31,591 nt of DNA from Candidatus Sediminicultor tertius (GTDB lineage: Bacteria > Atribacterota > Phoenicimicrobiia > Phoenicimicrobiales > Phoenicimicrobiaceae): NCBI GenBank assembly GCA_003527405.1, contig DPXH01000072.1:1-31591 (forward strand), read 5' to 3'. How positions within the stretch are numbered: the first letter of the stretch is position 1; every line of letters begins with the position of its first letter. The notes under the pieces were generated by a model. That model saw nothing but the letters and a program-made list of their open reading frames with translations, was not told where the DNA came from and made no database searches. Below are positions 2,825-31,591 of the stretch, in pieces. Made by a program: the position numbers and the translations under genes.

Positions 2825-5800
2825 ATGAATAAAGCTACGGTTAAAAAATTGCATAAAAAAATATCTAAAAGGATTTTGCACGCGCAAATATTGGATGACA
2901 TCTCTTTAGATAAAGAGTTGGTTAGAAAATATATAGAAGATCCTCTATTTTTAAAACAATTAACCTCTATGGTAAAAAATAAAGATTATAGTTGTCGTGC
3001 AGTATATTTTTTGTGCAAAGGCCTGCTTGTCGATATAGACAAAAAACATAATCCCGCCAACTGGCTTTATCGGGTGTTTCAGTTTGCCCTATCTAAATCT
3101 TTCCCTGAAACAGTAGACCTATCTGTTAAGGATATCTCCCCTGATTGCCGAAAAACTTTCTTGCTCTATTTAGAATTTTTAAGAGTAGTTTCAAATTTCC
3201 AAAAGTCGTCCGGTGATTCTACTTTTCACGGTAAATATCCCCTTAATTTTTTAACCCCTGAGGAAAAAAACAAACTGGAGAATCCTGTTGAATATAAAAG
3301 ATTCTTAAAAGCGTTTAATGATGAGTATATCTATGAGATGATGAAATTAAGCCAGGAAGTTTTAAAGTACAATACTCTTGACCATATATGCGGGGTAAAC
3401 CGGATTGCTCTATTTATCGGCAGGCAGTTATATAATCTGGGTCTTCCCGTGGATTTGGGGAGGATTTCCGGAGCAGCAGCAGGACATGATATCGGAAAAT
3501 ACGGATGCAAGGGTATAGAAGTAGAAAGGACTCCCTATTTACATTATTACTATACCGATATGTGGTTTGAAAAACATAATATCCCTTATATCGGACATAT
3601 TGCAGTCAATCATTCTGTTTGGGATTTGGAACTGGATAATTTGCCCCTGGAATCACTTATATTGATTTATTCTGATTTTCGGGTTAAAAATGCGAATAAC
3701 GGTCCCAAAGAGGAGATGAGAATCTTTAGTTTAAAAGATTCATTTCAAGTAATTTTAGATAAACTGGACAATGTCAATGAGAAAAAAAGAAAAAGATATT
3801 GCCATGTTTATGAAAAATTAAAAGATTTTGAAGATTACATGATAAATTTAGGGATAAATGTAGATGTAGAGAGTAAAGAGAGGAGCTCTTGTAAAAAAGA
3901 TAGAAACCCGCATTATCCTCTTATGCAGGGTCAAGAAGTTATCCAAAATATAAAATTTTTGTCCATAGAACATAATATAAATTTAATGCACGAACTTCGA
4001 GATGAATCTTCTCTTAATTCACTTTTAGAATTAGCTCGAAGCGAAAAAGACTGGAACAATCTACGGGAATATCTGCAAATATTTAATGAATATTCCACCT
4101 ACCTGACTCAAAAACAGAAGATGATTACCCTGAGATATTTATACGAACAGTTAACTCATCCGGAAGATGAAATAAGAAGGAGGAGCGCAAAACTTATCGG
4201 TTTACTGATTGCCAGTTTTGACGAAGATTACCGCAAAGAGATCCCTCAGAATGTTACCCTTAAACCTCCCGCGATTACCAGTGTTAATTTATTGGAAAGA
4301 TATTTAAAATATTTTTTACAGCCGAGCCATAAAAAGATTGCTCTTCATCAATCTCGAATTATTGATAGTGCTGAGAATATGATCTCTTCTCTTTTTTCTA
4401 ACTGTCGCAATAATCATCAGATAAGCAATTACAGAAAAAGCATTTTAAAACACTATAAAAAAGACCTGTATACCGATGAAGAAATTCAACTGTGTTTGAT
4501 AAAAACCGCCAAACATATATCAATCTGCTCAGATGAAAAATCTTTAAAGGTATTATTTGATTATATTATAAAGATGTTACAGAAGGAGAATCACAATCTT
4601 AGACTTACTGCTTTAGAGGTAGTCTATGATTTAATACCTCAAATTGATAAAAATTTTAGATTTATAAATAACTTAAGAAAAATATTTACCGGAAATATTT
4701 CCGTCTCAGAGCTCCCCGCCGAAAATTATTTAAATATGAAGATAGTTGAATTATTAGATTTGGATGAAAGTATTGTAAAAAAGTACATCGAATTTTATCG
4801 GAGAGATATAGAAAAGGTACAGTATATATTTCTAAGCAACCTTAAAACTTCAACCAGTGGAATAATTAAGAAAATTCAGATAGAACTTTTATTAGAACAT
4901 ACCTTAAAGAGCAAGCAGGAAGAAATCTATACCGCCTTGCATTTTTGTAATATTTTGAAAGTTAGCGGCATAGAAGATATTAGAAATTTGGCCGGTAAAA
5001 CCCTGGTAAATTTAATGCCTTCCTTATCTTTCCAACAGAGGAACGATATAGCCATTGAACTATTGCGGGCCTTAGAAATGGAAGATTATCAATTTACTAA
5101 ATATATTCCTTACTATTTGGGTCAATTAATACTCTATCTTACGCCTAATGAGTTAGAGGAACTTATTGATGATTTAATAGAAAAAATCAAACAGTCAGAT
5201 CCCAAATTAAGCTCATTGCTGCTTAGAACCATCGGTATAGCCATTGCTAATTACCCTAAGTACCGGGAAAGATTTTCAGAAGAAGAGAAATCATACGAAA
5301 ACAGACTTGGCAAGATGATTGGTATCCTTTTGAACGGCTTTGTACACTATAATTTAAAGGTGAAACAGGCAGCATTCAGAGTTATCGGTAAGGAAATATT
5401 TGGCTCAAGACATCTCAGCATAGAAGAGAAGAATCATATATTTAAACTTATAGCCAAAAAAATTCTTACTCTGTTAGCTCCCGTAAATAAAGAAGGACTG
5501 ATGTTTTTAATAAATTGTATCGGACTTAAGTATATGTATAAATTTATCTCTGATTATAATTTTTATAAGGGGAGCATAAACCTTGAAATCCCGAACAAAA
5601 TAGCTTTCTTCCCGGGAGCCTTTGACCCGTTTTCCTTAGGTCACAGAGAGATTGCCAGGGCAATAGAAAATCTTGGTTTTGAAGTATATTTGGCTGTTGA
5701 TGAGTTTTCCTGGTCAAAAAGGACTCAACCCCACCTCTTCAGAAAGAATATAATAAATATTTCGATTGCCGATGAACTTAATGTATATTTATATCCTGAA

Positions 5801-7750
5801 GATTTACCGGTTAATATTGCCAATCCGGATGATTTAAAGGCTTTGAGGGAAAATTTCCCCTATTCCGAGGTGTATATTGTAGTAGGCAGTGATGTGATAT
5901 TAAATGCCTCTGCTTATAAAAAGAAAAAAACAGAAAATTCAATCCATACTTTTCCCCATATTGTTTTTGATAGAAAGGCTTCAAATTCTACCGAGGAAGA
6001 AAAGAAAAAAGTTCAAATACCAATTGAAAGCATCGGAGAAAATACCTTTAGACTTAACCTTGCTACTCGTTATGAAGAGGTAAGTTCAACTCAGATAAGA
6101 AATAATATAGATGAAAATAGAGACATTTCCAGATTTATTGACCCTTTAGCCCAGAAATATATTTACGAAAATAGTTTATACCAGAGAGAGCCCCAATATA
6201 AGCGTGTAATACAGACTATCTCTACCGATGTGCAGGTAATTGAAGATATTACCCCGGATTTAATAAAAGAACTTTGCCAGAAAATACTTTTCAAATATAA
6301 TCGAAATAAAGCATCTAAAAAATTGCTTGAGTTTACTCGTAAATTAAACCCGAGAATTCTACTATTGCGTGATATCCGCCATAACGGAAAGATATTGGGT
6401 TTTTCGGCCTTTCACTGGGTTCGTTCAAATATTCTTTTCCAGGAGTTCAAGGACAATTTAATTTCTGAGTATATCCGGGAAAATGCGGTTGGCCGCACTA
6501 TAGTTATTGATGGTATTTTTACCATAAGTGATATGGAAAATAGATCAGGGCTGGAAAGCCTTGATCAGGTTATTCTTACCGAAACCCTTTCTTTTTGTAT
6601 AGAGAAAGATTACGATTATGCGATTTTCAGAAATGTATTAGATGATTATCCCTTAACTTCTTTAAACGAGAATTTAGAACTTATGGGGTTTTATCGCTTG
6701 CCTTTCAGCGATAAAGATAATCCGGTATTTGTAGTGAATATGAGTAAACCTTGTATAGTCAATCTGGATACCGAGACAATCATAAAGGAACCTTTCTGCC
6801 AAAATTTAAGCATCAAAAAATCAGTTATAGTATCCCGTAAACGATTATTAAGATCGTTTACTACTTTTTATCCCGGAAATGTTGTTTTACCATTTAATAT
6901 AAATTTAATAAATCAGGCTATTGTAAAGAAAATTTGTAAGATAAATGATGTTTCGACAACGCCGCTAACCCCCCGAACTTTAGGAAAGTCAATGTGTGTG
7001 CCCTTTGGGAAGATACTACATAAAATGGTAGTACCTAATACGGTAACCAAATCTCTCCATACAGAAAAAATATTTGCTTCCGATATGAGAAGTTTTGAGA
7101 TTGATGCCTTCCCCAATTATATGAGTCTGGAAAATCAGGTAAAGGTGATTCATTCATTTGATATGCCCGTAATTCTTATTGATGACTATTTGCATAAAGG
7201 ATATAGAATAAAGACCCTTGAGCCCCTGTTTAAAGAATATGATATTAAAGTCAAAAAGATAATTGTGGGGGCACTATCCGGTAGCGGGAAAGAGATAGCA
7301 ACCATATTAAATAGAGATGTTGATTGTGCCCACTTTATTCCCAATCTCAGGCTTTGGTTTAATGAAAGTGAATTGTACCCCTTTATTGGCGGAGACGCAT
7401 TAAAGAGAAAAATAAGGACTCAGGGAAATTTAGTTAGATCTATTAATCAGATACTACCCTATACTTTCCCTTCATTTATTAAAAATGTTTCTGCAAAAAC
7501 CGTCTACAATTTTTCCGAAGTTTGTATTGAAAATGCTTTAACTATATTAGAAGCTCTGGAAAATGAATACCAGGTAATTCAACAAAGGAAATTGACGCTC
7601 GATCATTTAGGAGAAGTAATTATTTATCCCCGATATCCTGACCAGGGAGAAGATATGGAGTATAATTTAAATCTTAGCCCTTCTCATTACTTGGGAAATA
7701 GCCTTGAACTTTTACGAAGAACCAAAGGGATAGCAGACAGAGAAAGGTGA
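2825..7750 (+). CDS. 1641-aa multidomain protein: HD phosphohydrolase + helical (HEAT-like) region + NadD/cytidyltransferase-like (HIGH-class) nucleotidyltransferase + GNAT-like + type I PRTase-like domain; function unknown
   Basis: HD site H187...HD221-222 (AAAGHDIGK)...H240...H263...D284; FPGAFDPFSLGH (929-940), VGSD, SSTQIR (1087-1092) and YIYENSLY as in NadD; ILGFSAF...IVIDGIF...LELMGFY (GNAT-like, weaker); VILIDDYLHKGYRI (DD1453-1454, PRPP-binding-like). Confidence 0.8.
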   Translation: MNKATVKKLHKKISKRILHAQILDDISLDKELVRKYIEDPLFLKQLTSMVKNKDYSCRAVYFLCKGLLVDIDKKHNPANWLYRVFQFALSKSFPETVDLSVKDISPDCRKTFLLYLEFLRVVSNFQKSSGDSTFHGKYPLNFLTPEEKNKLENPVEYKRFLKAFNDEYIYEMMKLSQEVLKYNTLDHICGVNRIALFIGRQLYNLGLPVDLGRISGAAAGHDIGKYGCKGIEVERTPYLHYYYTDMWFEKHNIPYIGHIAVNHSVWDLELDNLPLESLILIYSDFRVKNANNGPKEEMRIFSLKDSFQVILDKLDNVNEKKRKRYCHVYEKLKDFEDYMINLGINVDVESKERSSCKKDRNPHYPLMQGQEVIQNIKFLSIEHNINLMHELRDESSLNSLLELARSEKDWNNLREYLQIFNEYSTYLTQKQKMITLRYLYEQLTHPEDEIRRRSAKLIGLLIASFDEDYRKEIPQNVTLKPPAITSVNLLERYLKYFLQPSHKKIALHQSRIIDSAENMISSLFSNCRNNHQISNYRKSILKHYKKDLYTDEEIQLCLIKTAKHISICSDEKSLKVLFDYIIKMLQKENHNLRLTALEVVYDLIPQIDKNFRFINNLRKIFTGNISVSELPAENYLNMKIVELLDLDESIVKKYIEFYRRDIEKVQYIFLSNLKTSTSGIIKKIQIELLLEHTLKSKQEEIYTALHFCNILKVSGIEDIRNLAGKTLVNLMPSLSFQQRNDIAIELLRALEMEDYQFTKYIPYYLGQLILYLTPNELEELIDDLIEKIKQSDPKLSSLLLRTIGIAIANYPKYRERFSEEEKSYENRLGKMIGILLNGFVHYNLKVKQAAFRVIGKEIFGSRHLSIEEKNHIFKLIAKKILTLLAPVNKEGLMFLINCIGLKYMYKFISDYNFYKGSINLEIPNKIAFFPGAFDPFSLGHREIARAIENLGFEVYLAVDEFSWSKRTQPHLFRKNIINISIADELNVYLYPEDLPVNIANPDDLKALRENFPYSEVYIVVGSDVILNASAYKKKKTENSIHTFPHIVFDRKASNSTEEEKKKVQIPIESIGENTFRLNLATRYEEVSSTQIRNNIDENRDISRFIDPLAQKYIYENSLYQREPQYKRVIQTISTDVQVIEDITPDLIKELCQKILFKYNRNKASKKLLEFTRKLNPRILLLRDIRHNGKILGFSAFHWVRSNILFQEFKDNLISEYIRENAVGRTIVIDGIFTISDMENRSGLESLDQVILTETLSFCIEKDYDYAIFRNVLDDYPLTSLNENLELMGFYRLPFSDKDNPVFVVNMSKPCIVNLDTETIIKEPFCQNLSIKKSVIVSRKRLLRSFTTFYPGNVVLPFNINLINQAIVKKICKINDVSTTPLTPRTLGKSMCVPFGKILHKMVVPNTVTKSLHTEKIFASDMRSFEIDAFPNYMSLENQVKVIHSFDMPVILIDDYLHKGYRIKTLEPLFKEYDIKVKKIIVGALSGSGKEIATILNRDVDCAHFIPNLRLWFNESELYPFIGGDALKRKIRTQGNLVRSINQILPYTFPSFIKNVSAKTVYNFSEVCIENALTILEALENEYQVIQQRKLTLDHLGEVIIYPRYPDQGEDMEYNLNLSPSHYLGNSLELLRRTKGIADRER

Positions 7751-7755
7751 GGACA

Positions 7756-7812
7756 AAATTCGTATCTCGTATCCCCGTTTTCACGGGGACAAGTCTTGTG
7801 AATCGTATCTCG
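7756..7812 (+). repeat. 57-bp dispersed element (copy 1) with an internal CCCCGT-TTTC-ACGGGG hairpin flanked by CGTATCT heptamers
   Basis: Identical to 22266-22322; inverted near-copy at 28823-28875. Confidence 0.85.
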
Positions 7813-7878
7813 TTTAGGATTAGTTTGTTGGTTAGTTGGTTAAGAAAAAAGAAGAAAGAATGAAATACGTATTATAAT

Positions 7879-7902
7879 GTAGGGACACGATGCATCGTGC
7901 CC
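7879..7902 (+). repeat. Solo REP-like hairpin, type 2
   Basis: GTAGGGACACGATGCATCGTGCCC: GTAG foot plus imperfect palindrome. Confidence 0.75.
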
Positions 7903-7929
7903 AAAGGACTTGACTGTCTCTGAATTAAG

Positions 7930-8001
7930 GTAGGGGTTCGATTCATCGAACCCGTTAAAGAAATTACCAAATAACCCGGGGCGGATAAATCCGCCCCCTA
8001 C
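7930..8001. repeat. REPIN-like doublet, type 1
   Basis: GTAGGGGTTCGATTCATCGAACCCG (7930-7954) and inverted GGGGCGGATAAATCCGCCCCCTAC (7978-8001). Confidence 0.85.
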
Positions 8002-8048
8002 AGGATAAATATGAAAATACATAATCTTTACGGGGAGAAAAATCAAAG

Positions 8049-9293
8049 ATGTTCTTCTATAAGCTAAAAGATAGGATACTAATTTCCCAATCGGAATACA
8101 GTGAATTAAATAGAATATCCGAAAGCGAAGCCAAAGAGAGCAAAGAAATAATTTATATACTTAACCGGATAAACCCCTTAAAATCCAGAAGATATTTTAG
8201 CATTACCGACCCCTCCCTAATTTTTTTGAAAGAAGAGGGTATCCACCTGCTGCAAAAATCCAAGAAGATTGATTATGATTTACCCTTATGGCTTAATCAA
8301 AGAATAAAAGAAAAAAGAGTGAGTTCACTTAATACCGAATATCCTAACTGGCAAGAGGTATTAACTTATAAATTTCCCTCCCGGTGGAAAGTGAATATTG
8401 TAGGATTGGGTGATGTAGGAGGGGCTCTCCTTACCGGTTTGAGATTATTGGGAGGAAGTTGTATTGAATCTATCGGAATATATGATAAAAATATAAAGGC
8501 GATAAAAAGATGGGAATTAGAGGCAAATCAGATATTTTGTCCTTTTACTGATTACCAATTCCCTGAGGTTTACCAGTTAAGAGAAGAGAATATTTTTGAT
8601 TGTGATATGTTTGTATTTTGCGCAACTGTAGGAGTTCCTTCTTTGGGAGAAGAACAGGAAGATGTGAGAATGAAGCAGTTCGAAGGGAATTCTAAGATAA
8701 TCTCTGATTATGCCCGAAAAGCCCGGGAAAAATCGTTTAAGGGGATATTTGCAATTATCTCAGACCCGGTAGACTTATTGTGTAAAGCTGCTTTTCTAAC
8801 CGGCAATAAAGATGCAAGCGGAGAGTTTGATTTTAAAGGATTGGCAGCAGACCAGATAAGAGGGTATGGGTTAGGAGTGATGCATGCCCGGGCAGTCTAC
8901 TACTCAAAACAAAATCCTGAAACTGCTGAATACAATCGAGAAGGGAGGGCCTTTGGTCCTCATGGCCGGGGTTTGGTAATTGCTAACAGTTTAAAAAAAT
9001 ATAACGAAAGTCTTTCAGAGATGCTTACCGGTCAGACCGTAAAAGCAAACCTAAAAGTAAGGGAGACCGGTTTTAAACCTTATATCGCACCTGCCTTATC
9101 TTCCGGGAGCTATCCCCTTATTGCCACTATGAGTGGAAAATGGCATTATAGTGCAACCTTTATGGGAGGGGTATTTATGGGAGCAAAAAATAGATTGCTC
9201 AAATCAGGGACTGAAATTGAAAGGGTAGACCTTCCGGATATTTTAGTAGAAAAAATTAAGAAAAGTTATCAGGAATTGGGTAATATCTTATAA
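8049..9293 (+). CDS. Divergent lactate/malate dehydrogenase-fold NAD-binding protein with ~110-aa N-terminal extension
   Basis: VNIVGLGDVGG Rossmann motif, YD146 (NAD-preferring), R207-x6-N, SDPVD, GVMHAR, GPHG (His305); GGGGAG RBS. Confidence 0.8.
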   Translation: MFFYKLKDRILISQSEYSELNRISESEAKESKEIIYILNRINPLKSRRYFSITDPSLIFLKEEGIHLLQKSKKIDYDLPLWLNQRIKEKRVSSLNTEYPNWQEVLTYKFPSRWKVNIVGLGDVGGALLTGLRLLGGSCIESIGIYDKNIKAIKRWELEANQIFCPFTDYQFPEVYQLREENIFDCDMFVFCATVGVPSLGEEQEDVRMKQFEGNSKIISDYARKAREKSFKGIFAIISDPVDLLCKAAFLTGNKDASGEFDFKGLAADQIRGYGLGVMHARAVYYSKQNPETAEYNREGRAFGPHGRGLVIANSLKKYNESLSEMLTGQTVKANLKVRETGFKPYIAPALSSGSYPLIATMSGKWHYSATFMGGVFMGAKNRLLKSGTEIERVDLPDILVEKIKKSYQELGNIL

Positions 9294-9295
9294 TA

Positions 9296-9405
9296 ATTAA
9301 AAATTTAAACCGAAAAGCGAAAAACCATAATTCAAAGCGCAAAACTTTTTCTTTCGATAATAAATTTTAAATTTTAAGCTATGGTTTTGCGTTTTACGGT
9401 TTTTG
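9296..9405. repeat. A/T-rich inverted-arm element (MITE-like)
   Basis: Arms aaaccgaaaagcgaaaaaccataattcaaa (9307-9336) and tttaagctatggttttgcgttttacggttt (9373-9402) are imperfect inverted repeats; related arms recur at 17492/17769, 22333/22386 and 25040. Confidence 0.7.
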
Positions 9406-9440
9406 TTATATAACAATTAACGACAAGAGGGAATTATTTT

Positions 9441-10493
9441 ATGGAAAATATTTTTTTGATTATGCCGGGAAAAGTATCGGATAGTTTTGCCGAGATTGTC
9501 AAAATAGCCACTGAAAATTGCCCATTAAAAATTATAAAAACTGTTAAGGATCTTCCCGTTGATTTACAAAATAAAAAGATTATATTTGCTATTGAATTAG
9601 ATGAATGCGGATTTAATCTCCCTCTGTTTGAGATGCTTTTAAAATTAAAGAAAAGGGGAGATAATGTTCTTTCAGGTTCAAGAGCAGTCATTATAATCCA
9701 AAGTTCGAGTGAGTTATTTACCAAGAGCACCGCTCAGAAGATGATTTTTCTAACCAATCAGATGGGGTGCCGGTTCCCCGGTCATCCGGTTGTAGAGGCC
9801 ACTTATAATCTTAATAATTTTCTTACCTGGCAAAAAATATATAACCTGCCTCTTGTAGAGATTTACCGAGAACGGGCCAGGGAATTAGTAAAAAAATTAA
9901 AAGATGAGAACTTAAAATTAATTAATAGACCGAAGATACTTGTATTGCATTCGAGTTTGTTTAAGACATCTAATACTCTTATGCTCTGGAAGATGGTAAA
10001 AGAAAGCCTTGGCGGGGAAGATATAAGAGAACTCCACGTAGAAAATGGAACTGTGGTAGATTGCCGGGGGTGTTCTTATAAAACCTGTATTCATTACAGT
10101 GAAGAAAAAAGCTGTTTTTATGGGGGGATTATGGTAAAAGAAATTCTTCCTGCGATAGAAGAGGTTGATTGTATCATCTGGTTATGCCCCAATTATAATG
10201 ATGTAATATCCGCAAAGCTTATGGCAGTTATAAATAGGATGACTGTACTTTATAAGAGAGTGAAATTTGGGGATAAAACTCTATTTTCCCTTGTGGTTTC
10301 CGGAAATTCAGGGAGTGATTGTGTGGCTAAACAGCTAATAGGGGCTTTAAATATTAACAAAGGATTCAGACTGCCTCCTTATTTTGCTTTAACTGCTACT
10401 GCCAATGACCCCGGGTCAATAATGAATGTCCCGGGGGTAGACCAAAAAGCAAAAGAATTCGCTGAAAACATAAAAAGAGAGATTAAAAAATAA
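9441..10493 (+). CDS. Tandem flavodoxin-fold protein; C-terminal half resembles NADPH-dependent FMN reductase / iron-sulfur flavoprotein
   Basis: KILVLHSS...TSNT (FMN phosphate-loop-like), C208xxC211x4C216x8C225, IIWLCPNYND, VVSGNSG; N-terminal half looks like a degenerate second flavodoxin fold. Confidence 0.75.
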   Translation: MENIFLIMPGKVSDSFAEIVKIATENCPLKIIKTVKDLPVDLQNKKIIFAIELDECGFNLPLFEMLLKLKKRGDNVLSGSRAVIIIQSSSELFTKSTAQKMIFLTNQMGCRFPGHPVVEATYNLNNFLTWQKIYNLPLVEIYRERARELVKKLKDENLKLINRPKILVLHSSLFKTSNTLMLWKMVKESLGGEDIRELHVENGTVVDCRGCSYKTCIHYSEEKSCFYGGIMVKEILPAIEEVDCIIWLCPNYNDVISAKLMAVINRMTVLYKRVKFGDKTLFSLVVSGNSGSDCVAKQLIGALNINKGFRLPPYFALTATANDPGSIMNVPGVDQKAKEFAENIKREIKK

Positions 10494-10511: not shown

Positions 10512-11540
10512 ATGCAGAAGAAAGATATTAAAAATTTTAGCTTAAACGAACTTCAGGAAGAGGTTAAAAATTTAGGGGTTGAAAGATATAGGGCAGCTCA
10601 ATTATTTAATCTGCTTTACAAAAAGGGCATAGAAGACTTCAGAGATATGCTGAGCCTACCAGCAGCATTTAGGGAATTACTTCAAGAAAATTTTTACATA
10701 AGCAAGATGGAGCTGGTAAATTTAGCCAAATCGAAAGACCAAACCGAAAAATATTTATTTAAGTTAGAAGATGGAAATTTAATAGAAAGCGTTCTCATAT
10801 TTTCTGGTAAAAGAGTGACCGAATGTATATCTTCCCAAATCGGCTGTAAATATAACTGTTTGTTTTGTGAAAGCGGCAAAAAAGGTTTTACCAGAAACCT
10901 TACGGTTAGCGAGATTTTAAATCAAGTTTTATTTGTAAAGAAAAAGATCGAATCTAATCTCAATAATATTGTATTTATGGGTATTGGTGAGCCTTTAGAT
11001 AATTATGATAATGTGGTAAAAGCCATCTGTATATTGAATTCTAAAGATGCTTTCAATATCGGGGCAAGAAAGATTACCATTTCTACCTGTGGGGTAATAC
11101 CGGCTATAAAAAGGTTACAAGAGCGTAATTGGCAGGTGGAGTTATCAGTTTCTCTGCATGCTCCGGAGAATAAACTAAGGTCTTACCTGATGCCGGTAAA
11201 TAATATGTATCCCTTACCCGATCTGATAGAAGTATGCAGGAATTATGCGGAAAAAACTAAAAGGCAGATTACTTTTGAATATATTTTAATCAAAGGAGTG
11301 AATGATTCACTGATTTACGCAGATAAATTAGCTAAACTGATTGGCGGATTTAATTCTAAAGTAAATCTAATTACCTTTAATCCTGCGCCCGATTCTTTAC
11401 TGCAGGCACCCGGTATTTCCCAAGTCAAATCCTTTAAAAATAAGCTGACAGCCGGGGGAATCCCAACCACTATAAGAATATCAAAGGGTGATGATATCTC
11501 TGCTGCCTGTGGACAGCTAAAGAGCCTGCACCTAAAATAA
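10512..11540 (+). CDS. rlmN: Dual-specificity RNA methyltransferase RlmN (radical SAM)
   Basis: DQTEKYLF, CISSQIGCKYNCLFC (CxxxCxxC), MGIGEP, SVSLHA, TFEYILI.GVND, KVNLI.FNP, DISAACGQL. Confidence 0.92.
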   Translation: MQKKDIKNFSLNELQEEVKNLGVERYRAAQLFNLLYKKGIEDFRDMLSLPAAFRELLQENFYISKMELVNLAKSKDQTEKYLFKLEDGNLIESVLIFSGKRVTECISSQIGCKYNCLFCESGKKGFTRNLTVSEILNQVLFVKKKIESNLNNIVFMGIGEPLDNYDNVVKAICILNSKDAFNIGARKITISTCGVIPAIKRLQERNWQVELSVSLHAPENKLRSYLMPVNNMYPLPDLIEVCRNYAEKTKRQITFEYILIKGVNDSLIYADKLAKLIGGFNSKVNLITFNPAPDSLLQAPGISQVKSFKNKLTAGGIPTTIRISKGDDISAACGQLKSLHLK

Positions 11541-11614
11541 GTTACCAGGGTATAGGCGATACGCCCCTATTTTTTACCTGTTATCCGATACTTGTTTTCA
11601 CAAGAAGGGCAAAG

Positions 11615-11691
11615 GTAGGCGCACGATGCATCGTGCCCCTGATAATCAGAATACAATAATATAAGAAGGGCACAATTCATTGTGCCCATAC
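11615..11691. repeat. REPIN-like doublet, type 2
   Basis: GTAGGCGCACGATGCATCGTGCCCC (11615-11639) and inverted AGGGCACAATTCATTGTGCCCATAC (11667-11691). Confidence 0.8.
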
Positions 11692-11783
11692 AAAATAGCA
11701 CCTGATTTCTTTATTTTCTTTCTTTCCCTATTATTTTTTAACCAGCTAATCAGGTAACCAACTAACCAAATAACTAATTCCTA

Positions 11784-11814
11784 ACGCAATACGCAATACG
11801 CAATACGCAATACG
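11784..11814. repeat. Perfect heptamer tandem array (ACGCAAT)4-ACG
   Basis: Read directly: acgcaat acgcaat acgcaat acgcaat acg. Confidence 0.9.
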
Positions 11815-11823
11815 AAAATATTC

Positions 11824-11851
11824 TTGACTTTATAAACATATCTGATATACT
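11824..11851 (+). promoter_or_regulatory. Sigma70-type promoter of the tRNA gene
   Basis: TTGACT (11824-11829), 16-bp spacer, TGnTATACT (11843-11851), 25 nt upstream of the tRNA. Confidence 0.65.
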
Positions 11852-11876
11852 TTTAACGAAGATAATGTTAGCTAAC

Positions 11877-11952
11877 GGGCCCATAGCTCAGCTGGCAGAG
11901 CAACCGGCTCATAACCGGTCGGTCCCTGGTTCGAATCCAGGTGGGCCCACCA
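11877..11952 (+). tRNA. tRNA with CAT anticodon, most likely tRNA-Ile2 (lysidine-modified)
   Basis: 76 nt: acceptor GGGCCCA/TGGGCCC + ACCA, D stem GCTC/GAGC, anticodon arm ACCGG-CTCATAA-CCGGT, T arm CCTGG-TTCGAAT-CCAGG. Normal G1-C72 pair (not initiator); C4/C5 acceptor pattern resembles Ile2 rather than elongator Met. Confidence 0.92.
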
Positions 11953-12047
11953 GAAATTGGTAATTATTAATTTTATTGATAATAGATAATACAGGTAGTG
12001 TGGAATTTATGATAAAACAAAAAATTATAAAAATACCAGAATATTAT

Positions 12048-12088
12048 AAAAACCTTACTTCTTTTATATAAGAAGTAAGGTTTTTTTG
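12048..12088 (+). terminator. Intrinsic terminator after the tRNA
   Basis: aaaaaccttacttctt-ttatat-aagaagtaaggttttttt: long perfect stem plus U-tract. Confidence 0.85.
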
Positions 12089-12134
12089 TTTTAAAGGGCT
12101 TTACAGCTGTGAAGAGAGGAGGAAGGAGTTATTA

Positions 12135-17334: not shown

Positions 17335-17960
17335 GTATATCGTATATCGTAAAGAGAATAGAAGACAGAATTCAGAAGTCAAAATAGTATCACGTATCGC
17401 GTATCGCGCGAAGAAAAAAGCGGATAGCGTGGAGCGTATAGCATATAGTGTAGAGTAAAATTAGCGTATAGCGTAAAGGGAATATAGCGAAAAATTAAAA
17501 GCGCAAAGCGCAAAATCATAGCGCAAAACTAAAAATAAAAAAAGTAGTAGTTTATATAATTGTATTAAAAAATCTAAAACAAAAAATAAAAAGTGTAAAA
17601 TTATACACTCTTCTGTCATTCCCACGAAAGTGGGAATCAAGTGTTAGAAGATAAAAAAAAGATGGATTCCTATTTTCATAGCCATGACAAAAGATATGAG
17701 CAATAAAAAAAGATAAGAAAAAAATGTTGTACAGAGTATTTTTTCCTATACGCTAAAAGCTGAATAGGTTTTAAGTTTTGAATTATGGTTTTTCGCTTTA
17801 CGCTTTAAGTTTTTAGTTGGTCAAAACGTATCAAAAGACTGCCCCTGGCACGCATTGAAACGCAATACGCAATACGATATACTATATACGAGATTTAACT
17901 GGAGAACGGGCGTCTTATCTTTCATACTATACGCTAAACGCTGTACGCTATACGCTATTT
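17335..17960. repeat. Composite repeat-built spacer (ftsI-murE)
   Basis: GTATCGC and TAGCGTA heptamer arms (17336-17474), A-rich arm (17492-17535), GTCATTCCCACGAAAGTGGGAATC (17615-17638) with degenerate inverted partner (17663-17689), T-rich arm (17769-17818), reverse heptamer arms (17858-17957). Confidence 0.75.
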
Positions 17961-21855: not shown

Positions 21856-22505
21856 CGTGGAACATAGAGTAAAATTAGCGTACAGCGTACAGCGTAGAGC
21901 GTGGAGTTAGAGAAAAGAAGTAGACGAAATATAAAAACCAATTTCCCTCTGTCATTCCCACGAAAGTGGGAATCCAGGAGTGAAAGATAAAAAAAGATAT
22001 ATTTGCGTTTTCACGGGAATGACAGAGAATAACTCGGGGTGGATAAATCCGCCCCCTACAGGAAATAAAAGCCTGCAAATAGGCATTTTATAACAAATTA
22101 GTGAAATTTAATTTTAAACTGGTTAACCAAGTAATTGAGTGAATTATAAAAGAAGGGCACAATTCATTGTGCCCCTACGCCTGAACCTTATTTCTTTAAC
22201 GCGATACGCAGTAGGAGAGTGGATTGAAACGCAAAAAGCAACACGATATACTGTATGCGAAGTTTAAATTCGTATCTCGTATCCCCGTTTTCACGGGGAC
22301 AAGTCTTGTGAATCGTATCTCGGAATATCGCGAAAAATTAAATGCGCAAAACTATAACTTAAAATTCAAAATTAAGAGAGAAAAGTTTTTAGTTTTGAAT
22401 TATGGTTTTTCGTTTTTAGTTTTAACTTTTTAGTTACTATACTGAAAACTGTCAACTGAAAACCTGTATTTAATACTAATGACTATTCACTATTCACTAA
22501 CGACT
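21856..22505. repeat. Composite repeat-built spacer (mraY-ftsW) at the usual murD position
   Basis: TAGCGTA arm, ATTCCC-N8-GGGAAT pair (21951-22023), reverse REPs (22036-22059, 22154-22178), 57-bp element (22266-22322), A/T-rich arm pair (22333-22435), ACTATTC heptamers. Confidence 0.75.
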
Positions 22506-22525
22506 AATTATGGGGTTAATTTGAG

Positions 22526-24754: not shown

Positions 24755-24804
24755 AAAAATAAGAATTATTTTACCAACAAAGCAGGATAATTAATAATTT
24801 TATT

Positions 24805-25180
24805 GAAACTATAATATAGTATCGAGTATAGAGTATATAGTGAAGAAAGAAGAAGACAGAAGCCAGTATTCGGAAGCCAGAAGTAGGGGTTCGATTTATC
24901 GAACCCGCCAAATAAAATTAGTAAAATAACTCGAGGCGGATGAATCCGACCCCTACAAAATAAAATCATAAGTTTTTGAGTGTAGATATCTCTCCTGTAG
25001 TACTCTACGCTAAACGCTGTACGCTATACGCTAGAGAGGTTTTGAATTTTGAGTTATGATTTTTCGTTTTAAGTTTTTAATTTTAATTACATGTTCGTTT
25101 GATTTATAAAATCCGTATAAACAAATAAACATAGAAATTTTCCTAAATAAATCTGAACGCGATACGCGATACTCGATACT
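24805..25180. repeat. Composite repeat-built spacer (murG-murC) containing a type-1 REPIN-like doublet
   Basis: GTATCGA arm, REP 24883-24907 and inverted REP 24933-24956, TACGCTA arm, T-rich arm 25040-25088, GCGATAC arm 25155-25180. Confidence 0.75.
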
Positions 25181-25205
25181 AAAAAAAGGGGTGGAATTAT
25201 ATTTA

Positions 25206-27526: not shown

Positions 27527-27838
27527 GTATCGCGTATCGCGTGAAGAAAATCAGAAATCAGGAGTCAGAATAAATTAGTATCGAGATAGTATTTAGTATG
27601 TAGTAGCATCACGACATTGCCGTGATGAAGCCAAAAGGCAGAATAGAAAATAGCGGGTAGTGTATAGGGATAGAATATATAGTAGTAAGTAGGGGTTCGA
27701 TTTATCGAACCCGCCAAATAAAATTAACCAAATAACTCGGGGCGGATAAATCCGCCCCCTACAAAACAAAATCATAAATTTTAAAGTGTAGATATTTCTC
27801 CTGTTATGCTCACGTTAAACGCTGTACGCTATATGCTA
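27527..27838. repeat. Composite repeat-built spacer (murB-ftsQ) containing a type-1 REPIN-like doublet
   Basis: GTATCGC arm after the stop codon, REP 27689-27713 and inverted REP 27739-27762, TACGCTA arm; right half closely resembles 24882-25033. Confidence 0.75.
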
Positions 27839-27863
27839 ATATCAAAGGGGATTTTCAATATAA

Positions 27864-31299: not shown

Positions 31300-31303
31300 G
31301 AAA

Positions 31304-31591
31304 TAGCGTGGAGCGTACAGCGTTTAGCGTTTAGGTTCGGGCTGCAAGTACAAGATTAATTAGTCTACCGATCTTCCAGTCTACCAGTCAGCCAATCAAA
31401 TTAGCCGTTAGTAATAGTTAGCGTAGAGCGCATAGTAATTTAGTATCGAGTATCGCGTTATAGTTAACCAGTTTAAAACTAGATTCCACTAATTTGTTGT
31501 CAGAAAATGACCTTTTGGCAGGTTTTATTTCTTGTAGGGGGCGGATTTATCCGCCCCTTTTTTAGTAACTTTAAGAGCGGGTTCGATAAAT
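31304..31591. repeat. Repeat-built region after ftsZ, ending in an inverted type-1 REPIN-like doublet truncated by the window edge
   Basis: tagcgtggagcgtacagcgtttagcgt, agtatcgagtatcgcg, GTAGGGGGCGGATTTATCCGCCCC (31534-31557), then cgggttcgataaat at the edge. Confidence 0.7.

Follow-up and report, generated by a model that had tools for sequence, protein, structure and literature searches.

A conserved three-gene unit of anaerobic bacteria encoding a five-module nucleotide-handling protein and two candidate redox partners

The three genes and their distribution

The stretch of DNA analyzed here (hereafter the window) comprises 31,591 nucleotides of contig C70 of an Atribacterota metagenome-assembled genome (MAG), which is 1.47 Mb in size and 80% complete. 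Within it, three co-oriented genes on the + strand encode a giant nucleotide-handling protein, a protein related to lactate dehydrogenase (LDH-like protein) and a flavoprotein. The giant gene (P0001) occupies positions 2825-7750 and codes for 1641 aa arranged in five modules. It is followed by the gene for a 414-aa protein (P0121, 8049-9293) with the fold of lactate and malate dehydrogenases (LDH/MDH), which is predicted to bind nicotinamide adenine dinucleotide (NAD), and by that for a 350-aa, two-domain flavoprotein (P0122, 9441-10493). A purine run of ribosome-binding type precedes each of the three open reading frames (ORFs). A preliminary description, made from the sequence alone, had already placed the three genes at these positions, which matched the ORF list exactly. 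All of the domains that it named (HD, HIGH nucleotidyltransferase, GNAT-like, PRTase-like, NAD-binding Rossmann and FMN/four-Cys) were also found by profile or fold searches.

By scanning one genome per species we found at least 575 loci with homologs of the giant gene; the best 80 were analyzed, and 76 of these hold a full-length copy. The full-length homologs (41-98% identity) occur in Atribacterota, in Clostridia, where they span many families, and in one member of the Calditrichales. The LDH-like gene lies 3' of the giant gene in 68 of the 76 loci and the flavoprotein gene in 63, always in the same order. Gaps between the genes are mostly 0-100 bp and the reading frames often overlap; in many Clostridia the LDH-like gene either runs into the flavoprotein gene or directly adjoins it. 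Forty relatives, which represent both families of the window's order, have the three genes side by side and identically ordered. Among Atribacterota, two families carry the unit (41 of 51 genomes), and it was detected in none of the 34 genomes from five further families. The giant protein is 50-57% identical among the window's family, the second family and Clostridia. No fourth gene is conserved across the 76 loci beyond single lineages, and the flanking genes are lineage-specific (FAA hydrolase, DUF4883, peptidases, serine dehydratase, HPr kinase and others). A full-text literature search found no study of this operon. The three genes are a self-contained conserved unit, and none of them has a described function. 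The preliminary description had suspected an undescribed three-gene system and mentioned a similar arrangement in anaerobic Firmicutes. Both points were borne out, as the search of homologs and neighborhoods gave co-occurrence at 63-68 of the 76 loci, the clostridial loci show that very arrangement, and no known pathway was matched. Retention of this 7.7-kb operon across phyla by several hundred anaerobic species, at ~41-57% identity to the window copies, suggests that its role is an important one; the carriers include gut and sediment Clostridia as well as deep-biosphere Atribacterota.

In a FastTree phylogeny of the 76 giant sequences, rooted at the midpoint only, the Atribacterota proteins group in a single clade (support 100). 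This clade falls within a clostridial group (98), beside Tepidibacter and Alkalithermobacter. The Calditrichales protein is likewise nested in Clostridia. The tree of the flavoprotein agrees with that of the giant protein (98), and the tree of the LDH-like protein does not contradict it. These topologies point to horizontal movement of the unit between phyla as a whole block. With the midpoint root, the nesting of the Atribacterota clade suggests a transfer from Clostridia to Atribacterota, and the window's order most likely acquired the block once from a clostridial donor.

Some genomes contain a second, solo paralog of the giant gene that has neither LDH-like nor flavoprotein neighbors. Two solo paralogs adjoin orthologous kinases of the APH/fructosamine-kinase family, which share 41% identity (L027, 9040-9996, and L094, 9905-10843; also L030, 217-1128), and it may be that solo giant and kinase make up a second, kinase-linked variant of the system. 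Genes of nitrogen metabolism are neighbors at 4-5 of the 76 loci, and three of these cases come from genomes that are not related to one another. In a MAG (L016, 14942-20145), the ammonium transporter gene amt and a split gltB for glutamate synthase lie between the giant gene and its partners. In a complete clostridial genome (L022, 5564-9894), carAB is translationally coupled to the sole giant gene, the partner genes being located 1.5 Mb away, and in the Calditrichales locus (L024, 17692-19035) the glutamate dehydrogenase gene gdh is found just 3' of the unit.

Domains and conserved residues of the three proteins

The giant protein was modeled in two parts (residues 1-400 and 1126-1641), each with a 35-sequence alignment, and its residues were counted over the 76 full-length homologs. 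The model of residues 1-400 is all-helical, with a predicted local distance difference test (pLDDT) score of 89.6. A helical N-terminal region (residues 1-154) precedes an HD phosphohydrolase fold at residues ~155-350 (3287-3874, + strand), whose VIA matches are nearly all HD-superfamily structures (Z 9.7-8), including YqeK-family 2o08 (Z 9.4), 8wmy (Z 8.0), YhaM, HD-GYP proteins and Rel/SpoT. His187, His221, Asp222, His240, His263 and Asp284 are invariant in all 76 homologs and follow the YqeK-like H..HD..H..H..D pattern of metal ligands; these six residues are thus putative ligands of a binuclear-type hydrolase site. The Pfam HD model gave E = 0.21 on the giant protein, which is below significance. 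Membership of the domain in the YqeK family was rejected, since COG1713 and TIGR00488, run against all six frames of the complete assembly and thus also against the giant gene, produced no match at E <= 0.01. The next region (residues ~400-905, 4022-5539, + strand) appears to be a HEAT-like helical repeat scaffold. It gave weak Pfam HEAT matches over residues ~400-900, with PF02985 precomputed for several homologs, and is predicted to join the catalytic-type sites of the protein.

Residues 924-1121 (5594-6187, + strand) form a nucleotidyltransferase domain of NadD/PPAT type (HIGH superfamily), which was detected by Pfam CTP_transf_like (PF01467) at 29.3 bits. Against the NadD equivalog TIGR00482 it scored 46.8-51.9 bits, under the cut-off of 112.45. 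The profile matches in PDB were 3h05, NadD chains and PPAT chains, and NadD models outscored PPAT models. The motifs G-x-FDPF-[ST]-L-[SG]-H-K and ISS[TS]xIR are kept, and their His and Arg are invariant (76/76). Judged from the alignment, [ST]-L-[SG]-H is a conservative variant of (H/T)xGH, and the nucleotide-binding motifs of NadD type are thus present.

The model of residues 1126-1641 (pLDDT 89.9) shows a GNAT fold, then a type I phosphoribosyltransferase (PRT) fold and a helical tail. The GNAT-fold domain (residues 1126-1320, 6200-6784, + strand) was recognized with Foldseek probability 1.0, and by VIA with Z 12-14 over model residues 8-182, all matches being GNAT enzymes; Pfam acetyltransferase models did not match this region. 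The segment that links its strand 4 to helix 3 varies in the family consensus, and the model confidence dips there. The PRT-like fold with its tail spans residues 1325-1641 (6797-7750, + strand), of which ~1325-1525 are the core, matched by Foldseek to XPRT and UPRT with probability 1.0 and a TM by hit of 0.41-0.48. One strand of this domain ends in Asp1453 (76/76) and Asp1454 (62/76), followed by K-G-[YH]-R, and a polar loop, PNTVTKxLHTEK, is almost invariant among the homologs. Stand-alone relatives of the PRT-plus-tail part, ~290-330 aa in length, and a version fused to a HAD (Hydrolase_3) phosphatase were detected in candidate-phyla bacteria (TM by hit 0.82-0.84; ESM Atlas and AlphaFold DB clusters); all of these relatives are uncharacterized. 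Such stand-alone and fused forms would fit a real enzyme that acts on a phosphoribosyl product. A sequence search for stand-alone relatives of this module returned only contig-end fragments of giant genes, and profile searches of PDB with the N- and C-terminal thirds of the giant protein gave only a marginal HPRT match. The conservation seen over the 76 homologs makes the HD, nucleotidyltransferase and PRT sites all look used, even though two of them deviate from the textbook motifs.

Conservation of the partner proteins was scored over 69 LDH-like and 64 flavoprotein homologs. The LDH-like protein matches Ldh_1_N at 29.8 bits and its NAD domain aligns to L-LDH chains, whereas the equivalog TIGR01771 gave 30 bits against a cut-off of 303. 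As in L-LDH and MDH, the Rossmann motif GxGxxG and the acidic residue after beta-2 are kept, and Arg207, Arg281 and His305 (the equivalents of Arg109, Arg171 and His195) are invariant. Unlike these enzymes, the protein has an invariant Met (Met278) at the position of Asp168 and SDPVD in place of NPVD (Asp for Asn), its C-terminal domain is not recognized by Pfam (Ldh_1_C was not detected), and a 110-aa extension is present at the N-terminus. By alignment, the L-LDH/MDH catalytic set (Arg109, Asp168, Arg171 and His195) is therefore incomplete, Asp168 being replaced by Met. The extension is poorly conserved save for an aromatic pair that includes a near-invariant Tyr4.

The flavoprotein consists of an N-terminal domain (residues 1-160) that matches no known family and an FMN_red domain (residues 164-318; FMN, flavin mononucleotide), detected by PF03358, the model of the NADPH-dependent FMN reductase family, at 64.9 bits (cut-off 24). 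Its 64 homologs all keep S-N-T and P-N-Y-N, two motifs of the FMN site, together with Cys208, Cys211, Cys216 and Cys225 (nt 10062-10115). The protein thus carries the signature of FMN_red and iron-sulfur (Fe-S) flavoproteins, in which a compact four-Cys motif likewise accompanies the FMN site, and its four Cys residues form a putative Fe-S cluster motif. It differs from these families in the extra 160-aa domain and in the Cys spacing, C-x2-C-x4-C-x8-C. No relative with a solved structure was detectable by sequence.

A natural experiment came from a single Atribacterota genus, in two genomes with completeness of 93% and 83%: the giant and flavoprotein genes are absent from them, and the LDH-like gene has stayed in its old position (L091 (G037:C44), 8469-9743; L092 (G030:C25), 1521-2792). 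This orphan gene is intact and evolves with a ratio of nonsynonymous to synonymous substitution rates (dN/dS) of ~0.1 in the one pair tested. Its otherwise invariant Arg207 has changed to Thr or Ser, Asp239 to Glu and, in one genome, His305 to Ser. These changes argue that catalysis by the LDH-like protein probably depends on the other two proteins, the giant protein and the flavoprotein.

A possible dinucleotide cycle and its alternatives

Two options had been left by the preliminary description, i.e., a route that makes or recycles a nucleotide-derived compound, or a reversible covalent-modification switch of the GlnD/GlnE kind. The first fits our data better than the second, with invariant catalytic-type residues at the HD, nucleotidyltransferase and PRT sites. 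As a specific form of this option, it is possible that one polypeptide both makes and hydrolyzes an NAD-like adenylylated ribonucleotide and is coupled to a two-protein redox module; we favor this proposal tentatively, at a little less than an even chance. In such a cycle, the PRT domain would join a base or acceptor to phosphoribosyl pyrophosphate (PRPP), giving a ribonucleotide 5'-phosphate, and the nucleotidyltransferase would adenylylate this product with ATP to yield an NAD-like dinucleotide. For turnover or proofreading, the HD domain would then break the pyrophosphate bond, much like YqeK next to NadD. A dinucleotide would be bound by the LDH-like protein, in which the substrate-Arg and His machinery is kept and which would form a coupled redox pair with the FMN/Fe-S flavoprotein; this pair might make or tailor the acceptor, or it might take the product as its cofactor. 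The five-module chain, unusual in its architecture, would then carry out both the synthesis and the breakdown of a nucleotide-derived compound, with a link to redox chemistry at low potential.

A precedent is the NadD-YqeK system of Firmicutes and mycoplasmas, in which NadD, the adenylyltransferase for nicotinate mononucleotide (NaMN), is paired or fused with an HD diphosphatase. This hydrolase cleaves the dinucleotide made by NadD and proofreads analogs of nicotinate adenine dinucleotide (NaAD) (PMC9426524). The giant protein resembles it in combining a HIGH-superfamily adenylyltransferase with NadD-like motifs and an HD hydrolase of the H..HD..H..H..D type. It differs in that the two domains are ~570 residues apart, with the HEAT scaffold between them, in the additional GNAT-like and PRT-like domains, in the two dedicated redox partner genes and in scoring below the cut-off of both the NadD and YqeK models.

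Several observations weigh against the proposed dinucleotide cycle. In the HxGH motif, Ser or Thr takes the first position, and the Gly is replaced by Ser in most of the 76 homologs. The phosphate loop of the PRT domain has the sequence K-G-[YH]-R where T-x-G-x-T is usual, and the Pribosyltran model of Pfam gave no match. Given these departures, the nucleotidyltransferase or the PRT domain could be a ligand sensor instead. In addition, the acetyl-CoA pyrophosphate loop Q/R-x-x-G-x-G/A (CoA, coenzyme A) is not conserved in the GNAT domain, the flavoprotein gene is the partner most often missing (it is absent at G034, L052 and L073), and presence of the operon was not complementary to NAD salvage or de novo genes in the 86 Atribacterota genomes (G000-G085) that we surveyed for the NAD pathway.

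The genome encodes a canonical NadD above the cut-off (G000:C152:4560-5063), and so do 38 of 41 relatives, among them the genomes that lack the giant gene. A strong NadC (G000:C26) occurs alongside the operon, and NadC was likewise detected in relatives with and without the unit. The giant protein as the housekeeping NadD, or as an enzyme of housekeeping NAD synthesis, was thus ruled out, and since canonical NadD and NadC coexist with it, the operon would serve an extra function. Nicotinate phosphoribosyltransferases (the NAPRTase family, PncB/NadV) were found in none of the 86 genomes, operon-negative relatives included. The second family of the window's order yielded no strong NadC match, just a weak QRPTase_C-like protein of 350 aa; strong NadC matches were missing whether or not the operon was present.

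Quality control or salvage of ordinary NAD(P) is an unlikely alternative to the proposed cycle. Here, the HD domain would cleave damaged or mis-made dinucleotides and the PRT and nucleotidyltransferase domains would rebuild NAD from a salvaged base, whereas the LDH-like protein and flavoprotein would, on the same unlikely footing, recognize or re-oxidize abnormal reduced forms. The proofreading of NaAD analogs by NadD-fused YqeK (PMC9426524) is consistent with this role, as are the dinucleotide-binding motifs retained in the LDH-like protein and the lack of NAPRTase in Atribacterota (0 of 86 genomes), which leaves a gap for a salvage PRT with a different fold. However, operon-negative relatives also lack NAPRTase, so that complementarity is not seen, and the giant's HD domain has no match to the YqeK model. 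PRTs known to act on nicotinate or nicotinamide are of fold type II, whereas the PRT of the giant protein is of type I. The LDH-like protein also keeps the carboxylate-binding Arg typical of 2-hydroxyacid substrates. A bolder version of the proposed cycle is in our view doubtful. In it, the operon both makes and uses a new redox dinucleotide, an analog of NAD with another base, which the PRT and adenylyltransferase would build from PRPP and ATP on one chain, and the LDH-like protein and Fe-S flavoprotein are its dedicated enzyme couple. If true, strict anaerobes would have a new cofactor whose genes were exchanged between phyla as a cassette.

We consider it similarly doubtful that the unit is a GlnD/GlnE-like switch, in which the GNAT-like and PRT-like domains would sense metabolites such as acyl-CoA, PRPP or (p)ppGpp, and the nucleotidyltransferase and HD domains would add and remove a nucleotide on the LDH-like protein or the flavoprotein, held by the HEAT scaffold. 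As in GlnD and GlnE, opposing transferase-type and hydrolase-type domains, i.e., a potential writer and eraser, share one large chain with putative sensor domains and, in this case, a protein-binding-type scaffold. The degenerate GNAT cofactor loop would suit a sensor, and the PRT fold resembles the PRPP- and ppGpp-binding regulators PurR and XPRT. Tyr4, almost alone in being conserved within the N-terminal extension of its protein, the LDH-like partner, and the nitrogen genes beside or inside the unit (amt with the split gltB, carAB and gdh) can also be read in this way. However, those genes were seen at just ~4-5 of 76 loci, which are outliers, neither a PII nor a glutamine synthetase gene is linked to the unit, and the partners are redox enzymes. 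The PRT loop and acidic residue are conserved in the manner of catalytic sites. The sole nucleotidyltransferase signal in the giant protein (PF01467) is of the HIGH/Rossmann class, for which, to our knowledge, the substrates are small phosphorylated metabolites; the domains of GlnD and GlnE are of the pol-beta type.

Two further explanations appear less plausible. Synthesis of a CoA-derived prosthetic group or cofactor, with a PPAT-like step on a phosphopantetheine-type substrate, a phosphoribosyl group added by the PRT domain and CoA bound by the GNAT domain, is very unlikely. The phosphoribosyl step would be analogous to the 2'-(5''-phosphoribosyl)-3'-dephospho-CoA of citrate lyase, and the GNAT domain would bind CoA as in CitC, an enzyme composed of GNAT and nucleotidyltransferase parts. 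PPAT chains are among the profile matches of the giant's nucleotidyltransferase, which a GNAT fold directly adjoins. However, NadD models outscore PPAT models, the CoA-binding loop is not conserved, and genes for an acyl-carrier-type protein, citrate lyase or malonate decarboxylase are absent from the conserved unit. It is highly improbable that the unit is an anti-phage defense system or another accessory island that consumes or modifies nucleotides, even though it was transferred between phyla as a block and domains of the HD, nucleotidyltransferase and PRT types also occur in some defense systems. None of the three proteins matches PADLOC at E <= 0.01, and a defense system was rejected as an identity. 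The unit is single-copy, sits among housekeeping genes and occurs in nearly all genomes of two families, the giant protein is 50-57% identical between families and Clostridia, a partner gene shows dN/dS of ~0.1, and the flanks, which vary by lineage, are ordinary metabolic genes. Depending on which explanation is correct, working out the function could reveal a new cofactor, a route of NAD quality control or a metabolic switch.

Spacers, repeats and neighboring genes

The three genes in the window are separated by two spacers without assigned strand. Spacer 1 (7751-8048, 298 bp) consists of dispersed hairpin repeats of families D2, D8, D11 and D13, and spacer 2 (9294-9440, 147 bp) contains repeat families D1 and D6 together with inverted repeats I3 and I5. 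Further copies of the repeat families of both spacers lie in other parts of the window; positions 7756-7812 and 22266-22322, for instance, contain the same 57 nt. Dispersed hairpin-repeat families, with stems of GGGGCGGATAAATCCGCCCC-type and GGGCACGATGCATCGTGCCC-type, fill nearly every intergenic region (1900-2820, 7751-8048, 9294-9440, 11560-12130, 17335-17960, 21860-22520, 24760-25190, 27690-27860 and 31300-31591), and this looks like a genome-wide invasion of the kind seen with repetitive extragenic palindromes or miniature inverted-repeat transposable elements (REP/MITE-like). In relatives the gaps between the three genes are shorter, ~30-90 bp, with 29-300 bp at the position of spacer 1. 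The repeats that the preliminary description had reported in the spacers are therefore real, but the spacers are not part of the system, as the same families occur throughout the window and relatives have shorter gaps.

Searches of the spacers revealed no terminator-like site on the + strand, and neither terminators nor promoters exceeded chance there. No riboswitch or other Rfam element was found upstream of the unit in the window or in 11 clostridial loci. The sequences in front of the unit resemble ordinary sigma-70 promoters followed by short leaders. Two public sediment metatranscriptomes contained contigs that are 90-95% alike over all three genes and break at the variable repeat spacers. 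These contigs show the presence of relatives in RNA libraries, in which DNA carry-over is possible, and not co-transcription.

As had been described, the surroundings of the unit are of housekeeping type; we identified them as nucleoside diphosphate kinase (NDK), a NifU-like ORF and RlmN. On the 3' side of the flavoprotein gene we found RlmN (10512-11540), a tRNA, a CdsZ-like zinc-ribbon protein, RNase P RNA and the dcw cell-division and cell-wall cluster. On the 5' side of the giant gene are a CPBP protease, NDK (1289-1819) and the small NifU-like ORF (2110-2331). The latter encodes ~73 aa with a C-x-x-C motif of the NifU C-terminal type and falls under the ORF length threshold. The Pfam model of NDK was matched in two stretches, residues 1-49 and 94-175, which implies a probable insertion of ~40 residues in the middle of the enzyme.

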